Positions 12,441 through 56,808 of a stretch of DNA of 64,000 nt are shown one piece after another. The stretch spans positions 48,507 to 112,506 of the forward strand of contig JBDHJS010000001.1 in the NCBI GenBank assembly GCA_039586795.1, written 5' to 3'. Numbering within the stretch: position 1 is the stretch's first letter; each line of letters starts with the position of its first letter. The position numbers were made by a program, and so were the translations under genes. The notes below the pieces were generated by a model. It had not been told where the DNA came from, searched no databases, and was given only the letters and a program-made list of their open reading frames with translations. This DNA is from Gemmatimonadota bacterium (lineage in GTDB: Bacteria; Gemmatimonadota; Gemmatimonadetes; Palauibacterales; KS3-K002).

Positions 12441-12505
12441 CGGGCGCCGGCCCCGGAATGTTCTCCGGAGCCCACGCCCGAGTCTATTCAGTTCAGACCG
12501 CTTAC

Positions 12506-12552
12506 TGCTTAGCGCTTACCACCCACTACCTACCACCTACCACTCACCACCT
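12506..12552 (-). repeat. G-rich GGTAGG-repeat element in RNA sense immediately 3' of stop codon (CTACC repeats on plus strand)
   Basis: ccacccactacctaccacctaccactcaccacctaccg directly abuts the stop codon of the upstream minus-strand gene; related copies at 13770-13812, 21737-21776 and 21846-21881. Confidence 0.5.
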
Positions 12553-13216
12553 ACCGACCGCCACCGCCCTCTTCGTGGTGCACCCGATGCCGCATCCGCA
12601 TACCCTGCCCATCGCCCTCACCTTCCATATGCATACGCATCTGCCGCATACCCTGACGGCGAAATACCTCGGCGCCTTCCTTCCAAGTCTCGAACTTCTG
12701 GCGCTGCGCATCGTTCAGCACGCCCAACGTCTGGCGCTCCACGTCGATGAAGCTCTTGGCCTGGGCGGTGCGGAGTCGAGCCAGCTCGTCGATGGCGCTC
12801 TCCATCGCGTCGTAGTCGTCGGCTCTGCGGGCTTCGGCGAGCGCTTCGGCCTGCTTCTGCATCTGCTCGCGCATGCCGGTCATCAGCGCCTGGTGGCTGG
12901 TGTGTACGCCCTCGAGCTGAGTGACCTGCTCCTCGGAGAGCTCGAGATCGTCCTTGAGGCCGATCAGGAAATGCGGGCCGAGGTGCGCCGCTCCCATGCG
13001 GGCGCTGGTCCTCATGTGCCGCATGCCCTGCCGCATACCCCGCATGCTCATCCGGCCCTGTCGGCCCATCTGGCGCATCATGCCGCGGTGAGCGCGCCGC
13101 ATCTGCGCCGTGGTATCCTGCTCTGCTTCTTGAGCAGCGCCAACCGCAGGTAGCGCCAGGAGCGCCGCCAACGCGAGTGCTGCTGCTGCTGGGAATCGCA
13201 TATTCATCTTGCCCAA
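12551..13216 (-). CDS. periplasmic Spy/CpxP/ZraP-family protein (LTXXQ motifs) with Met- and His-rich metal-binding-like termini
   Basis: Signal peptide; LSEEQVTQL and LNDAQRQKF LTXXQ-type motifs; Met-rich N-region (MRQMGRQGRMSMRGMRQGMRHM) and MRMHMEGEG...HRVHHEE C-tail; lies between csoR and copA. Confidence 0.55.
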   Translation of the reverse strand: MGKMNMRFPAAAALALAALLALPAVGAAQEAEQDTTAQMRRAHRGMMRQMGRQGRMSMRGMRQGMRHMRTSARMGAAHLGPHFLIGLKDDLELSEEQVTQLEGVHTSHQALMTGMREQMQKQAEALAEARRADDYDAMESAIDELARLRTAQAKSFIDVERQTLGVLNDAQRQKFETWKEGAEVFRRQGMRQMRMHMEGEGDGQGMRMRHRVHHEEGGGGR

Positions 13217-13769: not shown

Positions 13770-13812
13770 CCGACCGTCTACTGTCTACCCTCTACTGTCT
13801 ACCGTCTACCGC
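13770..13812 (-). repeat. GTAGAC/GGTAGA-repeat element (RNA sense) immediately 3' of the diheme cytochrome c gene
   Basis: gaccgtctactgtctaccctctactgtctaccgtctaccg overlaps the stop codon at 13806; same family as 12506-12552 and the 21.7-kb inverted repeats. Confidence 0.5.
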
Positions 13813-14552
13813 GCCGATCGCTCCCGTAGGTAGTTCGCGATGGCATCCGCCTCACGGTCTGTGAGCGGCGCGATATCCATGGCGTTCATCAAGCCACGCA
13901 TCCGGGCAACGATGGCGTCCCACCCGGCGGCGGTGTGTGCGCGCGGCGACGGCGGCGCGTGACAGATGGCGCACCTCTGCATGAAGAGGTCGAGGCCGGG
14001 TCCGTCCGTCAGTTCGCCGGGTTCGGCTTCCGGCAACGCGTTCCTCTGCAGGTAAGAGAGGATCGAGTCGGTCTGCTCCGGCGTCGGGTACTCGGCCGTC
14101 TCGAGTCCAGCCATCACCACGTCGCCGATCAGGCCGGTTGTGAGCGGGCCGCCTAGTCGGTACTCCAGGGTCTGAGCCCGGTAAAGCATGTTGCGCAGCA
14201 AATACGGCCATTCGGTCGCAGTATGCATCTTGGGTGACGGCAGCCAGTGGCACTGGATGCAGTAAACTTGGAGAAGGCCGGCGCCGCGCGAGCCGGGTTC
14301 GGGCAGCTGCTCCGGTGTGTAGTTGATGGGCGGCAGACCGGAACCGACGGACGCGATCAAGCGCCAGCGCGTACCGCGTTCCATGGCGGCGGTGGCGGTT
14401 CCACCGAGCTCGGCGAGCACGCTGTCGACGACGGCGATGTCGACCTCCTGGTTCGCCTGCTCCTGGACGCAGCCGGCCGCCACTACCGTGAAAGCAAGCG
14501 CGGCGAGGACACCACCCAGTCGCGACCACTTCTCCCGGCTCTGTCTGTGCAT
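13806..14552 (-). CDS. diheme c-type cytochrome lipoprotein
   Basis: Lipoprotein signal (VVAAGC); two CxxCH motifs (CIQCH, CAICH), each followed by similar ATEWP/AAGWD segments, suggesting an internal duplication. Confidence 0.7.
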   Translation of the reverse strand: MHRQSREKWSRLGGVLAALAFTVVAAGCVQEQANQEVDIAVVDSVLAELGGTATAAMERGTRWRLIASVGSGLPPINYTPEQLPEPGSRGAGLLQVYCIQCHWLPSPKMHTATEWPYLLRNMLYRAQTLEYRLGGPLTTGLIGDVVMAGLETAEYPTPEQTDSILSYLQRNALPEAEPGELTDGPGLDLFMQRCAICHAPPSPRAHTAAGWDAIVARMRGLMNAMDIAPLTDREADAIANYLRERSAR

Positions 14553-18544: not shown

Positions 18545-18545
18545 C

Positions 18546-18592
18546 AATCCCCGAACCTCGTAATCCCCGAACCCCCGAATCCCATCACCTCC
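18546..18592. repeat. copy of dispersed CGAATCCCC/AATCCCCGAAC repeat element
   Basis: AATCCCCGAACCTCGTAATCCCCGAACCCCCGAATCCC; 24/27 identity to 46360-46402; located between convergent genes mlaD and 18585..18971. Confidence 0.5.
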
Positions 18593-20470: not shown

Positions 20471-21733
20471 ATGAGTAACTCCCTAGACATAGCCGAGCTT
20501 AAGGCCAAATCGGTACAAGACCTCCATGAGATGGCCGAGGAGCTCAACATCCAGAACTACTCCGGCCTGCGCAAGCAGGACCTGATCTTCCGCATCGAAC
20601 AGAACTTGCTCGACTCCGACGTGATCCTCCGCGCCGAAGGCGTGCTGGAGATTCTGCCGGAGGGCTACGGTTTCCTGCGCAGCCAGGACTGGAACTATCT
20701 GTACGGTCCGGATGACATCTACGTGTCTCCATCACAGATCAAGCGATTCGATCTGCGGACCGGCGATACCGTATTGGGCCAAGTGCGGCCTCCCAAAGAG
20801 GGCGAGCGATACCTGGCGCTGCTCAAGGTGGAGGTCGTCAACGGTGAGGATCCGGAGAAGTCGAAGCATCGGATCAGCTTCGACAATCTGCGGCCCCGTT
20901 ATCCGGAGGAGCGCATCACCCTGGAGCGCAAGAACGGCGACATCGCCAACCGGATCATCGATCTGGTCGCGCCCACCGGGAAGGGTCAGCGCGGCCTCAT
21001 AACCTCGCCGCCGAAGGCCGGTAAGACAATCCTCCTGCAAAAGGTCGCCAATGCGATCACCGAAAACCACCCCGACGTTCACCTCATCGTTCTGCTCATC
21101 GACGAGCGTCCGGAAGAGGTGACGGACATGGAGGAGCACGTCGATGCTGAAGTGATCGCGTCGACGTTCGATGAGCCAGCCGATCGTCACACTCAGGTCG
21201 CCGAGATGGTGATCGAGAAGGCCAAGCGTCTCGTAGAGCACAAGCACGACGTTGTGATTCTGCTCGACTCGATCACTCGATTGGCTCGCGCCTACAACGT
21301 CGTTGTGCCCCACTCGGGTAAGATCCTGTCCGGTGGTGTGGACGCCAACGCGCTTCACAAGCCGAAACGGTTCTTTGGCTCGGCGCGTAACCTGGAAGAG
21401 GGCGGCAGTCTGACGATCATCGCGACGGCGCTCATCGAGACCGGTTCCCGAATGGACGAGGTGATCTTCGAGGAATTCAAAGGCACCGGCAACATGGAGA
21501 TTGTCCTCGATCGACATATCGCCGACAAGCGCATCTTCCCCGCAATCGACATTAACCGATCCGGAACGCGCCGCGAAGAATTGCTGCTCGACGAGAAGAC
21601 TCTCAACCGGATGTACCTGCTCAGAAACTTCCTCGCCGATATGCCGCCGGCGGAGTCGATCGAGTTCTTGATTCAGAGGATGAAGCGGGCGGAGAATAAT
21701 GACGAGTTCTTGGATTCGATGCAGGAAGGGTGA
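20471..21733 (+). CDS. rho: transcription termination factor Rho
   Basis: Full-length (420 aa) match to the Rho architecture: N-terminal RNA-binding OB domain, P-loop [16 protein letters not shown] and R loops. Confidence 0.95.
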
Positions 21734-21736
21734 TTG

Positions 21737-21776
21737 GGCGTAGGGGGTTGAGGGTAGAGAGTAGAGGGTAGGAGGC
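21737..21776 (+). repeat. left arm of ~40-bp inverted repeat (GGGCGTAGGGGGTTGAGGGTAGAGAGTAGAGGGTAGG), a GTAG-repeat element 3' of rho
   Basis: Starts 4 nt after the rho stop; reverse complement matches 21846-21881 with few mismatches. Confidence 0.55.
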
Positions 21777-21803
21777 GGACGCGCAGCTGACAGTCAAAGA
21801 ACA

Positions 21804-21852
21804 GAAACGGCCGGACGTGCTTGCCGCGCGCCGGCCGTCTTCTTTCCCCCTA
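21804..21852. terminator. bidirectional rho-independent terminator candidate between convergent rho and PRT genes
   Basis: GC-rich hairpin (AAACGGCCGG...CCGGCCGT) followed by TCTTCTTTCCCCC on the plus strand and preceded by GAAACAGAAAC (T-run on the minus strand). Confidence 0.5.
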
Positions 21853-21881
21853 CTCCCTACCCTTCACCCCCTACGCCCTAC
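21846..21881 (-). repeat. right arm of inverted repeat; GTAG-repeat element 3' of the phosphoribosyltransferase gene
   Basis: CCCCCTACTCCCTACCCTTCACCCCCTACGCCC is the reverse complement of the 21737-21776 arm; abuts the stop codon at 21878. Confidence 0.55.
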
Positions 21882-22426
21882 GCGTCACCACTCTCCCCAA
21901 GCAAATCTTCATACTCCGGATTAACCACCAGCCGTCCCGACTCACTCTCAACCACCTCCCTATCCCAGGGGAAGACAACAATGCCGTCCGTGGCAAGGGC
22001 GAAGTAATCGGGCTGGTAGCCGCCTTCGCGGACCAGAGACGTGGCGGTGCGCACCTCCGTGGGCCCGACGTCGCGTACGGCGGCGAGGGCGAGGCGCATC
22101 GTGTCGCCGCTGTCACAGATTTCATCGACGAGTAGCACATTGCGGCCCGCCAGTTGCGGCGGTGCGACGGACAACACCTCCGGGCGCTGAAGCGAGCCAT
22201 CGTCGTCCTCGCGGCGGGTGATCTTTATGGCGTAGAACGGCTTCTGAAGCATGGCGGCAACGACAGCGCCGGGGATCACGCCGGCGGCGGCGATCCCGAC
22301 AACGACATCGGGCTCGAAATCGCGAGCCACGGTAATCCCGAGAACGCGGCAGAGCTCGCCGAACAACTCCCAAGAAAGCTCCAGAACGCCATCGCCGTGC
22401 AGGTCGGTGAAATCGAGTTCGGCCAC
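21878..22426 (-). CDS. phosphoribosyltransferase-family protein (PRPP-binding, HGPRT/XPRT-like)
   Basis: PRPP-binding loop VLLVDEICDSGDTM. Confidence 0.65.
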   Translation of the reverse strand: MAELDFTDLHGDGVLELSWELFGELCRVLGITVARDFEPDVVVGIAAAGVIPGAVVAAMLQKPFYAIKITRREDDDGSLQRPEVLSVAPPQLAGRNVLLVDEICDSGDTMRLALAAVRDVGPTEVRTATSLVREGGYQPDYFALATDGIVVFPWDREVVESESGRLVVNPEYEDLLGESGDA

Positions 22427-33285: not shown

Positions 33286-34410
33286 GTGAGGCGCAGAGCG
33301 GTCTGGGCGGGCGTCGGTACTGCTGCGTTGGTGCTGGTTTATTTCCTGGCGTGGCCGGTGCCGATCGATCCGGTGGAGTGGGAGGCGCCGGTGAACCCGG
33401 GGTATACAGGCGCGTTTGAGGTTAACGAGAGGTTGGCGCAGGTCGAGACGTTCTCGATTGGGGATAATGTTGGGCCGGAGGCGGTGGCGGTCGATGGTGA
33501 AGGACGTGTTTACGTCTCGACGAAAGACGGGTGGATCGTGCGGTTGCAGTCGGATGGGTCAGCGGCGGAGAACTGGGCGAATACCGACGGCCGACCGCTG
33601 GGGATGGAGTTTGACGCCGCCGGCAACCTGATCGTCGCCGACGCCCATCACGGTTTGCTTTCGGTCGCGCCAGACGGAAGCGTCAGCTTGCTGGTGATGG
33701 AGGCCGACGGGATACCGATCCGTTTCGCCAACGATCTGGACGTCGCGCCCGACGGCCGGATCTACTTCACGGACTCGTCCACCAAGTTTGCGCCCATCGA
33801 TTGGGAAGGAACCACAGCGGCGGCGTTACTCGAGCTGATGGAACATGGCGGCAATGGACGCCTGCTGGTCTACGACCCCGAGATCGGGAGCGCCACGGCG
33901 GTGATCGACGGCCTCAGTTACGCCAATGGAGTCGCGGTCGCTCACGATGGATCGTTCGTGCTGGTGAACGACATGGGGAGTTACAGAGTGCTTCGCGTCT
34001 GGCTCAGAGGACCCTACACGGGATCCAGCGAACCACTCATCGAGGAGCTGCCCGGTTTCCCGGACAACCTGTCCCGTGGCCTGGACGGCCGGTACTGGGT
34101 GGCGTTCATCTCGCCGCGCAATTCGCTTGTCGACGCGCTCTCTGACAATCCATTCCTTCGCAAAGTGGTGCAGCGACTCCCCGCGTTCCTTCGACCCGCC
34201 GCGACCCACTACGGTCATATCATCGCCGTGGATCATAGCGGTCGAGTGATAGAAGACCTGCAAGACCCGAGGGGAGCGCTACCGATGATCAGCGGCGTGC
34301 GCGAGACCGAAGACTTCCTTTGGTTGGGGAATGTGGAGTCACCGGTGGTGGGACGGATCAATAAGACGCAGGTTCAATGCTGCAAAGCAGCTCTCACGGA
34401 CCACGAGTAG
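33286..34410 (+). CDS. strictosidine synthase-like / SMP-30-gluconolactonase-LRE family beta-propeller protein
   Basis: N-terminal TM/signal, repeated GPE/A.DG motifs (GPEAVAVDGEGRVY, PLGMEFDAAGNLIVADA, NDLDVAPDGRIYFTDS). Confidence 0.6.
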   Translation: MRRRAVWAGVGTAALVLVYFLAWPVPIDPVEWEAPVNPGYTGAFEVNERLAQVETFSIGDNVGPEAVAVDGEGRVYVSTKDGWIVRLQSDGSAAENWANTDGRPLGMEFDAAGNLIVADAHHGLLSVAPDGSVSLLVMEADGIPIRFANDLDVAPDGRIYFTDSSTKFAPIDWEGTTAAALLELMEHGGNGRLLVYDPEIGSATAVIDGLSYANGVAVAHDGSFVLVNDMGSYRVLRVWLRGPYTGSSEPLIEELPGFPDNLSRGLDGRYWVAFISPRNSLVDALSDNPFLRKVVQRLPAFLRPAATHYGHIIAVDHSGRVIEDLQDPRGALPMISGVRETEDFLWLGNVESPVVGRINKTQVQCCKAALTDHE

Positions 34411-34442
34411 CCTACGAAAACAAACCGCTAGGAGAACGACCG

Positions 34443-35537
34443 ATGCCCGGAATCACACGACGCTCCTTTTTCAGGAATAGCATCCTAGCTGGCGCCGGCG
34501 CCGCCGTCTGGCAGAGACTCACCCCATCCGCCCAGGCGAGCGCGCCCGCCCCGACGTTTGGCCGAAAGTCAGCCACCACGCCGATGGTCGTCACAAGCCA
34601 TCCGAACGACACCGGGCGCCGGGCGCTGGAGATCGCCTGGGAGATCCTTGCGGATGGTGGTACTGCGCTGGATGCGGTCGAGAAGGCGACGAACCACATC
34701 GAGTTGGACCCGAACGACTGGAGCGTAGGGTATGGTGGCCTTCCCAACGAGCGCGGTGTGGTACAACTCGACGCTTCGATCATGGACGGCAAAACATACA
34801 GCGCCGGATCGGTCGCATCTCTGGAGAACATCGTGCATCCATCATCGGTGGCGCGACTGGTTATGGAGCGCACCGACCACGTGATGTTGGTGGGCCCCGG
34901 CGCTCTCGAGTTCGCCACGTCCTGGGGCTTCGAGGAGCAAGAGCTGCTCACAGAACGGGCGCGGGAGCGTTGGCTGCAGTGGCGTGAAGAACACAGCGAG
35001 CGGGACGACTACGGTCCGCCCGACCATGTCAAGACGGGCAGCGACGAGCGCGGAGCTTCCCTCCCCGGTAGCGATCCCGAGACGTATGGGACGGTTAACG
35101 TGCTGGCGGTCGACAACAACGGTGATGTCGCCGGGATCACGAGCACCAGCGGTTTGTCGTGGAAGATCCACGGCCGTATCGGCGATTCGCCAATCATCGG
35201 CGCCGGTCTCTATGTGGACAACGATGTCGGCGCCGCCGGCGCCACCGGTCGCGGCGAAGACGTGATCAAGGCCTGCTCGTCGTACTACATCGTCATGCGG
35301 ATGCGTGAGGGTCGGTCACCGCAGGAGGCGTGCGAAGACGCGCTCCACTACATCGCCGACCGCTACCGGTCGGTGGGGCTGGACTACCTCCCGGGCGAGA
35401 AGTTCGTGGCAATGAACCGGGACGGCGAGGTAGGCTGCGCCCAGACGTTCGGGCGGAATGCCCCGAGGATGACGGTGGCAGGCGGATCCGGGATCGAGGT
35501 TTATTCCGGGGAGACGGTCTTCAGCCGGGAAGACTGA
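34443..35537 (+). CDS. Tat-exported asparaginase-2 family Ntn hydrolase (isoaspartyl peptidase/glycosylasparaginase-like)
   Basis: Twin-arginine signal (TRRSFFRNSILAGAGAAVW) from the ATG at 34443 with AGGAGAA RBS; Ntn-hydrolase motifs GTVNVLAVDNNGDVAGITSTSG and GAGLYVDNDVGAAGATGRGE. Confidence 0.75.
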   Translation: MPGITRRSFFRNSILAGAGAAVWQRLTPSAQASAPAPTFGRKSATTPMVVTSHPNDTGRRALEIAWEILADGGTALDAVEKATNHIELDPNDWSVGYGGLPNERGVVQLDASIMDGKTYSAGSVASLENIVHPSSVARLVMERTDHVMLVGPGALEFATSWGFEEQELLTERARERWLQWREEHSERDDYGPPDHVKTGSDERGASLPGSDPETYGTVNVLAVDNNGDVAGITSTSGLSWKIHGRIGDSPIIGAGLYVDNDVGAAGATGRGEDVIKACSSYYIVMRMREGRSPQEACEDALHYIADRYRSVGLDYLPGEKFVAMNRDGEVGCAQTFGRNAPRMTVAGGSGIEVYSGETVFSRED

Positions 35538-35539
35538 TG

Positions 35540-35610
35540 ATTCGGGGATTCGCTCAGCCAATCGCCGAAGCCGCGAATCTGGTGACCCCCGAATCGCTCC
35601 AATCCCTCCG
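35540..35610. repeat. CGAATCCCC/GGGGATTCG motif cluster (ATTCGGGGATTCGC ... CCCCCGAATCGC)
   Basis: Same motif family as 18546-18592, 46262-46402 and 60420-60460. Confidence 0.4.
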
Positions 35611-46261: not shown

Positions 46262-46402
46262 GACCGGGGGGATTCCGGGTTTCGTGGGTTACAAGGCTCG
46301 GGGATTCGGGGGGAATCGGGGATTGCTTCGCAGGCGGTCCAGGTTTCCCCGGATAATCCCAGAATCTCGTAAGCCCCTAATCCCAGAATCCCCGAATCTT
46401 CA
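46262..46402. repeat. cluster of CGAATCCCC/GGGGATTCG repeat units in both orientations in a 290-bp divergent intergenic region
   Basis: GGGGGGATTCCGGG, CGGGGATTCGGGGGGAATCGGGGATTG, AATCTCGTAAGCCCCTAATCCCAGAATCCCCGAATC. Confidence 0.45.

Positions 46403-54390: not shown

Positions 54391-56808
<2,418 letters not shown>

Follow-up and report, generated by a model that had tools for sequence, protein, structure and literature searches.

Among long simple repeats, heptanucleotides are reported to be the most frequent kind in the majority of prokaryotic genomes, with slippage of the polymerase as a suggested cause, as summarized in two reports (PMC4679880, PMC4692102). Here, we analyze a mirrored pair of G-rich heptanucleotide arrays in a 64-kb stretch of DNA, hereafter called the window, from a metagenome-assembled genome (MAG) of Gemmatimonadota. 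The two arrays are located between rho and a convergent phosphoribosyltransferase (PRT) gene. The rho/PRT element is two mirrored runs of the GTAGGGG heptamer that flank what is probably an ordinary two-way terminator, and the runs probably have an origin in slippage and at most a modulatory role. The unit GTAGGGG and the phylum Gemmatimonadota are new within a known kind of G-rich heptamer repeat. The arms are probably neither a dedicated device nor a transposon. The main interest is not the rho/PRT locus itself, but the polarity rule that mirrored pairs of this kind follow.

Cyanobacterial STRR heptamers are further prokaryotic heptanucleotide repeats. In Xanthomonas and Nostoc, Rehm et al. 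(2015; PMC4692102) characterized GGGNATC heptamers, G-rich repeats that form G-quadruplexes (G4s) in vitro with a preference for four units. They are transcribed and are found within 50 bp past stop codons on the coding strand, almost always nearer to the open reading frame (ORF) on their 5' side and rarely between divergent ORFs. They vary between close relatives, show occasional inverted arrangements, and have no known function. The TAACTGA repeats reported by MacGregor (2015; PMC4679880) give stops in all three frames. The genome paper of Geobacter metallireducens (PMC2700814) reported paired sets of five tandem heptanucleotides, and a preprint on Nostoc (10.1101/2022.06.06.494920) reported upstream heptamer repeats with modest regulatory effects and no mechanism. 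GTAG-tagged repetitive extragenic palindromic (REP) sequences often supply TAG stops to flanking ORFs and form head-to-head dimers (Di Nocera et al. 2013; PMC3733652). No paper on the exact rho/PRT arrays was found in a full-text literature search.

Structure of the rho/PRT Element

The element and the two genes around it are composed of the following features.

20471 to 21733, plus strand: rho gene, 420 aa, an ORF with its stop TGA at 21731-21733
21736 to 21773, plus strand: left arm, G-rich, about five degenerate heptamers (GGGC, then GTAGGGG, GTTGAGG, GTAGAGA, GTAGAGG, and GTAGGAG), in sense in the 3' untranslated region (UTR) of rho
21796 to 21807, plus strand: A-rich tract AAAGAACAGAAA, seen in the sequence, which on the minus strand is a T-rich run past the hairpin
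21807 to 21838, both strands: GC-rich hairpin ACGGCCGGACGTGC-TTGCC-GCGCGCCGGCCGT, likely a bidirectional intrinsic terminator common to rho and PRT
21839 to 21845, plus strand: T-rich run CTTCTTT, seen in the sequence directly 3' of the hairpin
21841 to 21878, minus strand: right arm, C-rich on the plus strand, reading GTAGGGC, GTAGGGG, GTGAAGG, GTAGGGA, and GTAGGGG, in sense in the 3' UTR of PRT
21878 to 22426, minus strand: PRT gene, 182 aa, an ORF with the Pfam domain Pribosyltran

The two arms found by a repeat search are 38 nt in length, complementary at 32 of the 38 positions (84%), and 67 nt apart. The whole 64-kb window was also scanned for inverted repeats that span no more than 230 nt and are complementary at 32 or more of 38 positions, and this pair was the sole locus to reach the threshold. 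No dinucleotide-preserving shuffle out of 20 reached 32 positions, the best being 27. An earlier note on this DNA had reported a G-rich inverted-repeat pair here, and the pair is real. The left arm, which the note placed 4 nt after the rho stop, actually begins 2 nt past the TGA. The right arm does adjoin the PRT stop as the note described, but the TAG, which is 21878-21880 read in reverse complement, shares one base with the arm and belongs to the array, of which it is the first TAG.

Both arms are period-7 tandem arrays of the unit GTAGGGG, a feature absent from the earlier note. Tandem Repeats Finder (TRF) reported period 7 for the left arm (4.6 copies; lag-7 identity 0.76) and both period 7 (5.1 copies) and period 21 for the right arm (lag-7 identity 0.65). 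Identity at other lags is about 0.3-0.45. A degenerate unit is present at the same mirrored position in both arms, GTTGAGG in the left and GTGAAGG in the right. Therefore, the arms are copies of each other and not independent expansions. The arrays contain at least three head-to-tail 7-nt units and vary between genomes at one locus, as do members of the broad class of prokaryotic heptanucleotide repeats. There is no second copy of the 38-nt arm in the 64-kb window. Within the window, GGGCGTAGGGGGT with up to two mismatches matched only the two arms and chance-level sites, and GGGTAGRG is not enriched.

Each arm is G-rich on one strand only, the right arm being nearly free of G on the plus strand. 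In folds that lack the partner arm, each remains unpaired. The left arm is unpaired in the fold predicted for the terminated rho mRNA, and so are the first 30 nt of the right arm in that predicted for the terminated PRT mRNA. The G4Hunter scores are 1.72 for the left arm and 2.24 for the right arm, the latter being the maximum in the window. Canonical G4 motifs are present on both, and that of the left arm starts at 21728. The G-rich RNAs, 33-38 nt in length, are GGGCGUAGGGGGUUGAGGGUAGAGAGUAGAGGGUAGG and GGGCGUAGGGGGUGAAGGGUAGGGAGUAGGGGG. The G4 potential proposed earlier for both 3' UTRs is thus borne out in silico, and both converging mRNAs do carry the G-rich repeat in sense just upstream of the common hairpin.

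The inner hairpin is likely to be the bidirectional intrinsic terminator of the convergent rho and PRT genes, based on its predicted fold and flanking sequences. Its folding energy is -24.9 kcal/mol on the plus strand and -24.2 kcal/mol on the minus strand. A T-rich run follows the hairpin on each strand, CTTCTTT on the plus strand and TTTCTGTTCTTT on the minus strand, and both runs are interrupted. Here the earlier note, which had described a GC-rich hairpin with T-runs on both sides between the arms, was correct. There is no T-run past the outer stem formed by the arms.

The spacer between rho (plus strand) and PRT (minus strand) is 144 nt in length. The spacer region is identical in all three independent assemblies, and it is therefore not an assembly artefact. 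The 171-nt region containing the element folds at -102 kcal/mol (z = -8.3), and none of 200 shuffles was equally stable. A scan against Rfam 15 at the gathering threshold returned no matches in the window and none in 16 related loci, so that a known RNA family is not supported at these loci. The locus should not be annotated as a mobile element or as a new RNA. The rho product contains the Pfam domains Rho_N, Rho_RNA_bind, and ATP-synt_ab, as found on the identical gene in L001.

The rho/PRT Spacer in Relatives

The PRT/rho locus was compared in eight relatives with 76-88% PRT identity, and their spacers were read. The spacers contain the following.

L003 (88% PRT identity): same layout and same hairpin stem, with different, mutually complementary arms of the (GGTAGGG)n type; the spacer folds at -87.4 kcal/mol
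L250, rho side: long G-rich arrays past the rho stop, GGTGCGGTGGTGAGT x5 (GGTGCGG/GGTGAGT) and GTAGGGG x3, then a hairpin
L250, PRT side: (ATTCGGGG)n in PRT sense; the two arms are non-complementary, but both are G-rich when read in the direction of the gene that they adjoin
L247: (ATTCGGGG)n on the PRT side; the contig ends 45 nt past the PRT stop
L004: only (CGGTAGN)x3 in a 23-nt spacer, sense for rho and antisense for PRT
L249: mirrored period-8 pair (AATAGAAC)n, purine-rich first
L006: short G-rich/C-rich hairpin
L005 and L248: plain spacers with no repeat

The relatives carry different units or none at the orthologous spacer, indicating that the arms turn over fast. The hairpin stem is conserved only in the closest pair, the window and L003, whose loops and arms differ. 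Strong G4 capacity is seen in the spacers of three of the eight relatives, and two have no repeat. The arms have been replaced by unrelated units, yet the strand polarity is kept in nearly every arm: where spacer repeats exist, the G- or purine-rich strand is nearly always sense to the adjoining gene. The sense-strand richness in G or purine recurs even when the arms are not complementary, as in L250, which argues that the strand matters. The contig of L250 ends at the rho stop. The ends of the L247 and L250 contigs in or beside arrays suggest that such arrays break short-read assemblies.

Mirrored Pairs and Their Polarity

Genomes were scanned with a generic pattern of four GTAG units at 7-nt spacing, and metagenomes with (GTAGGGR)n. 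All figures from these scans refer to the matches listed. In the genome scan, GTAG heptamer arrays span many phyla, including Acidobacteriota (especially Pyrinomonadaceae), Gemmatimonadota, Cyanobacteria, Bacteroidota, Planctomycetota, Chloroflexota, Elusimicrobiota, and others. TRF on about 1.7 Mb of fetched loci found period 7 to be by far the commonest (515 rows), followed by period 14 (157 rows), with many different units. In loci selected for a GTAG array, other heptamer arrays are about as many (211 vs. 264).

A GTAG array followed by a CTAC array within 300 nt was found 27 times in the genome loci, and the opposite order was never found. In the metagenome loci, GTAG comes first in eight cases versus one in the opposite order. 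The latter consists of two arrays with unlike units and does not qualify as a mirror pair. Mirrored GTAG pairs occur in convergent, tandem, and divergent gene contexts. Among 49 mirrored period-7 pairs of any unit, 48 have the G-rich array as the 5' arm, and this does not depend on how the flanking genes are oriented. The sole exception is L232 (19-1997), which contains the plant-type telomere repeat as a long (CCCTAAA)n array followed by a long (GGTTTAG)n array. This is presumably a eukaryotic contig in a metagenome collection.

The arms of a pair share variant units at mirrored positions (L007, L050, and L121), and the centres between the arms are mostly unrelated to each other. Significantly stable hairpins (z < -2) are found in 11 of 33 pair centres. 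A strict rule of a hairpin plus a T-run found none of 35 pair centres, as it misses bulged stems. The idea that pair centres are generally terminators was rejected, with only these 11 of 33 being stable and the A/T-rich ends being inconsistent.

In several Pyrinomonadaceae/Acidobacteriota loci (L050, L115, L121, L042, L062, and L101), the (GTAGACA)n arms enclose centres of 57-60 nt whose ends (GCYCCGCG ... GAAGGYTTTT) resemble each other from one locus and species to the next. A dispersed element may thus have given rise to some of the pairs of this lineage as its copies.

Single arrays are nearer to the ORF on their 5' side, in the orientation of the G-rich strand, with a ratio of 86:29. Sense single arrays start at a median of 0-5 nt from the stop codon. 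In tandem contexts, the genome scan gave 21 sense and 16 antisense single arrays, and the metagenome scan gave 18 and 8. A strict sense orientation of single arrays was thus rejected in favour of a mild bias in tandem contexts. Context calls for GTAG arrays are skewed in favour of "sense", since every ORF read on that strand is closed by a TAG. Single arrays are common between convergent genes (19 and 14 in the two scans) and rarer between divergent genes (4 and 8). Under the strict hairpin-plus-T-run rule, 15 single arrays have the structure downstream and 3 upstream, giving weak support to a position of hairpins on the 3' side of single G-rich arrays.

In one MAG of Bacteroidales (L064, 1115-4493), GTAG heptamer arrays are densely clustered, with more than ten of them in about 3.4 kb, all on a single strand. 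This cluster was left out of the statistics.

The polarity rule is partly a corollary of the 5'-neighbour observation of Rehm et al., which is reproduced here. Our data sharpen it: in mirror-image pairs, the G-rich strands point toward each other, and the polarity outlives the replacement of units at one conserved gene pair. They also extend the bacterial heptamer repeat class to Gemmatimonadota, Acidobacteriota, and other phyla. If the polarity reflects selection or strand-specific mutation, it could bear on the interplay among G-rich repeats, terminators, and palindromes in bacteria.

Other Arrays in the Window

Genes in the window were called by the G+C content at third codon positions (GC3), and every 3' intergenic region was then listed. 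Of about 32 usable 3' regions, four contain GTAG-anchored heptamer arrays, namely those of rho, PRT, and two further genes, and every one of these arrays is G-rich in sense. The second and third instances are as follows.

12497 to 12555, minus strand: GTAG-anchored array GGTAGGT GGTGAGT GGTAGGT ..., beginning at the TAG stop of the gene at 12551-13216 (minus strand)
13773 to 13811, minus strand: (GGTAGAC/AGTAGAC)x5, beginning at the TAG stop of the gene at 13806-14552 (minus strand)

The former array is followed by a hairpin and a T-run, and the latter by a hairpin and the run ATCTCTTTTC, in both cases ahead of the next gene. In three of the four window arrays, the first TAG also serves as the stop codon of the gene. 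The earlier note had raised the question of further copies at gene ends. The repeat type does recur there, right after the stops, but the 38-nt arm itself does not recur in the window. In the array at 12497-12555, the units are GGTAGGT, GGTGAGT, and GGTAAGC, and the degenerate ones retain TGA or TAA in register.

The window also contains a second type of G-run repeat, GGGGATTC/GGGAATC, with a period of 7-8. At 18545-18584, it is G-rich in the sense of a 128-aa gene whose stop it adjoins. At about 35538-35610, a G-first/C-second pair is located directly past the stop of the gene at 34377-35537. In a divergent intergenic region, 46266-46325 and 46369-46398 constitute a mirrored pair with the G-rich array first. 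The repeats at 18545-18584 and 46266-46398 fit GGGGATT/GGGAATC, and this repeat type agrees with the published GGGNATC/GGGGAYT quadruplex-forming motif.

A further tandem repeat of 15 nt/45 nt (CTTCTTGGCGGCCGC) is present at 56330-56448, inside the gene at 54391-56478 (minus strand). Read on the coding strand, it would give repeats rich in Ala and Lys close to the N-terminus.

Origin and Role of the Arms

In the explanation that we consider the most probable, the inner GC-rich hairpin would be the working part and would terminate both convergent genes. The arms are hypermutable heptanucleotide simple-sequence arrays and belong to a widespread prokaryotic class that gathers at ORF ends. They would arise and change by replication slippage, and the likeness between the two arms may be kept by inverted duplication or by templated repair within the palindrome. 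Each terminated mRNA is predicted to have an unpaired, G4-capable stretch between the stop codon and the terminator. In a transcript that reads through, the two 38-nt arms would pair into a helix around the terminator. The G-rich strand as the 5' arm, sense to the adjoining gene, follows a general rule of the repeat class. The role of the arms in expression would be at most modulatory, not essential.

Several points weigh against this explanation. Termination at the inner hairpin is predicted, and a consensus terminator scan did not call the hairpin at 21807-21838, because the stem is bulged and the T-runs are interrupted. The loci from the scans were chosen by pattern, not at random, and thus do not sample genomes without bias, and several pairs come from one genome. 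Gene contexts in the fetched loci are crude longest-ORF calls, which makes the context counts approximate. Three mechanistic explanations of the polarity were examined, and none held. The best 45-nt fold was upstream of 49 and downstream of 50 of 99 single arrays, showing no hairpin asymmetry. A purity gradient, as a sign of directional array growth, was not seen, because degeneracy is higher in the 5' third of 38 arrays and in the 3' third of 36. Stop codons are not enriched on the G-rich strand of 172 non-GTAG arrays (81 observed vs. 85.3 expected from composition-matched shuffles). The polarity in 48 of 49 pairs and the sense richness in G or purine that survives several independent replacements of the repeats, also in the non-complementary arms of L250, look like the result of selection or of a strand-specific mechanism, and a model of purely neutral by-products leaves them unaccounted for.

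It is possible, although we consider it unlikely, that the arms are a selected 3'-UTR RNA element. They would be either a G4 or a site for a protein binding GUAG or G-tracts upstream of the terminator, which would protect the 3' end or tune expression. The in silico G4 scores and motifs fit such an element, as does the unpaired state of both arms in the predicted folds of the terminated mRNAs. In the arm RNAs, UAG occurs every 7 nt; sites of the HutP/TRAP type have three or more UAG triplets at a fixed short spacing and are bound by a ring-shaped RNA-binding protein. Bacillus HutP binds (UAGNNNN)x3, a period-7 UAG motif, which counts in favour of a protein-binding site. G richness of the sense strand persists at the orthologous site in L250, where the arms are non-complementary, and single (GTAGGGR)n arrays in tandem contexts are more often sense (18) than antisense (8). 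The GGGNATC heptamers likewise form G4s in vitro and prefer the coding strand past stops (PMC4692102). Against this, the G4 potential is not conserved at the orthologous spacers, being strong in only three of eight relatives, and two relatives have no repeat. Most GTAG arrays elsewhere (GTAGACA, GTAGCCG, and others) lack G-tracts and are incapable of forming G4s. These two observations argue against an essential G4 role. Over both scans, the single arrays in tandem contexts are just 39 sense versus 24 antisense. The polarity of pairs does not change between tandem and divergent genes, although one of the arms is then outside any 3' UTR, and no Rfam family matches the window or the 16 related loci.

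A broader form of selection appears still more doubtful to us: mirrored G-rich-first arrays would be a strand-polar boundary module of bacterial transcription units, re-created from whatever heptamer is available. It is similarly doubtful that, for example, a polymerase arriving from either side would first make a G-rich RNA that sets up a G4, R-loop, or protein-bound barrier. If such a module existed, the rho/PRT element would be one instance of a widespread, undescribed regulatory principle.

The remaining explanations fit the data less well than either the slippage origin with an ordinary terminator or the 3'-UTR RNA element. An improbable one is a fail-safe for read-through. The C-rich arm would form a long double-stranded stem with the G-rich arm, which RNase III could cut or which could act as a second hairpin for termination, or it would be a C-rich, G-poor entry site for Rho. 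In both cases, antisense transcription into the convergent gene would be blocked. The high stability of the whole element (-102 kcal/mol) is in line with pairing of the arms. The arms stay complementary within each genome though those of the window and L003 differ, and 11 of the 33 pair centres contain a stable hairpin. The C-rich arm is nearly free of G. However, the arms of L250 at the orthologous site are non-complementary, two thirds of the pair centres have no stable hairpin, and no T-run lies past the outer stem. A Rho loading site is usually about 60-80 nt, and the 38-nt arm is short for it. A fail-safe also leaves the 48-of-49 polarity unexplained, because either polarity would give the same helix.

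It is very improbable that the element is a mobile palindromic insertion between the two genes, similar to a MITE (miniature inverted-repeat transposable element) or to a REP or bacterial interspersed mosaic element (BIME). Inverted 38-nt termini between convergent genes have the appearance of such an element. GTAG also tags the REP superfamily, whose termini give TAG stops and which forms head-to-head dimers (PMC3733652), and a few Pyrinomonadaceae pair centres share short similar ends. However, no second arm copy is present in the 64 kb, and there is no target-site duplication, as the flanks, TGATT on the left and TACGC on the right, are not direct repeats. The tandem-heptamer arms cannot fold on themselves as the stem-loop of a REP does. 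At the orthologous site, fast-changing repeat units have replaced one another in place, whereas a single element would be either there or missing. Between analogous pairs, the centres are for the most part unrelated. A MITE with a conserved core was rejected by a comparison of the 33 centres with blastn-short, which gave only four short matches, one of them being the orthologous window/L003 pair. The MITE-like insertion proposed in the earlier note is not sustained, and the interpretation given in that note is, overall, partly supported.

Equally remote is an all-frame stop barrier, in which TAG at 7-nt spacing would put a stop in each frame within 21 nt and halt read-through or frameshifted ribosomes before the terminator: the gene's stop is the first TAG in three of the four window arrays, some degenerate window units retain TGA or TAA in register, and TAACTGA repeats share the all-frame stop property (PMC4679880), but non-GTAG arrays show no stop enrichment, mirrored non-GTAG pairs without stop codons show the same polarity, and a stop is retained in five of 12 degenerate units of mirrored pairs (hand count), about the expectation for single substitutions.

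Comparison with Known Repeats and Terminators

Ordinary bidirectional terminators resemble the centre of the rho/PRT element in having a GC-rich hairpin with an A-rich tract 5' and a T-rich tract 3' between converging stop codons. Unlike this locus, they have no 38-nt repeat arms outside the A and T tracts.

GTAG-tagged REP/BIME sequences (PMC3733652; Ton-Hoang et al. 2012, PMC3333891) share the GTAG, the location after genes, the supply of a TAG stop, and the dimers 20-100 bp apart. In contrast, the REP unit is a 20-40-bp stem-loop, present in many near-identical copies and linked to the REP-associated tyrosine transposase (RAYT). The rho/PRT arms consist of tandem heptamers without the ability to pair with themselves, have no further copy in the window, and differ at this locus from one relative to another.

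The general heptamer repeats, namely TAACTGA, those of Geobacter, and STRR, are alike in having period 7, a mostly intergenic location, many arrays per genome, a scattered phylogenetic distribution, and an unresolved function. Their units differ, and none of these reports describes GTAG anchoring or a fixed G-rich-first polarity. Unlike the rho/PRT arrays, TAACTGA repeats are mostly located just upstream of start codons. The sets of Geobacter metallireducens are drawn as palindromic pairs of five tandem heptamers, similar to the rho/PRT arms.

The GGGNATC repeats of Rehm et al. differ in the unit, which here is GTAGGGG and not GGGNATC or GGGGA(C/T)T, and in the phylum, which here is Gemmatimonadota. 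The arrays here are a mirrored pair around a probable bidirectional terminator, and their G4s are predicted in silico. The two are alike in being tandem 7-nt units with a G-tract, in about four or more copies, intergenic, rare between divergent ORFs, at times inverted, variable at a locus, and located past a stop in the coding sense. The rho-side arm starts 2 nt past the TGA, the PRT-side array includes the TAG, and both are G-rich in sense, as expected from the position of the GGGNATC repeats.

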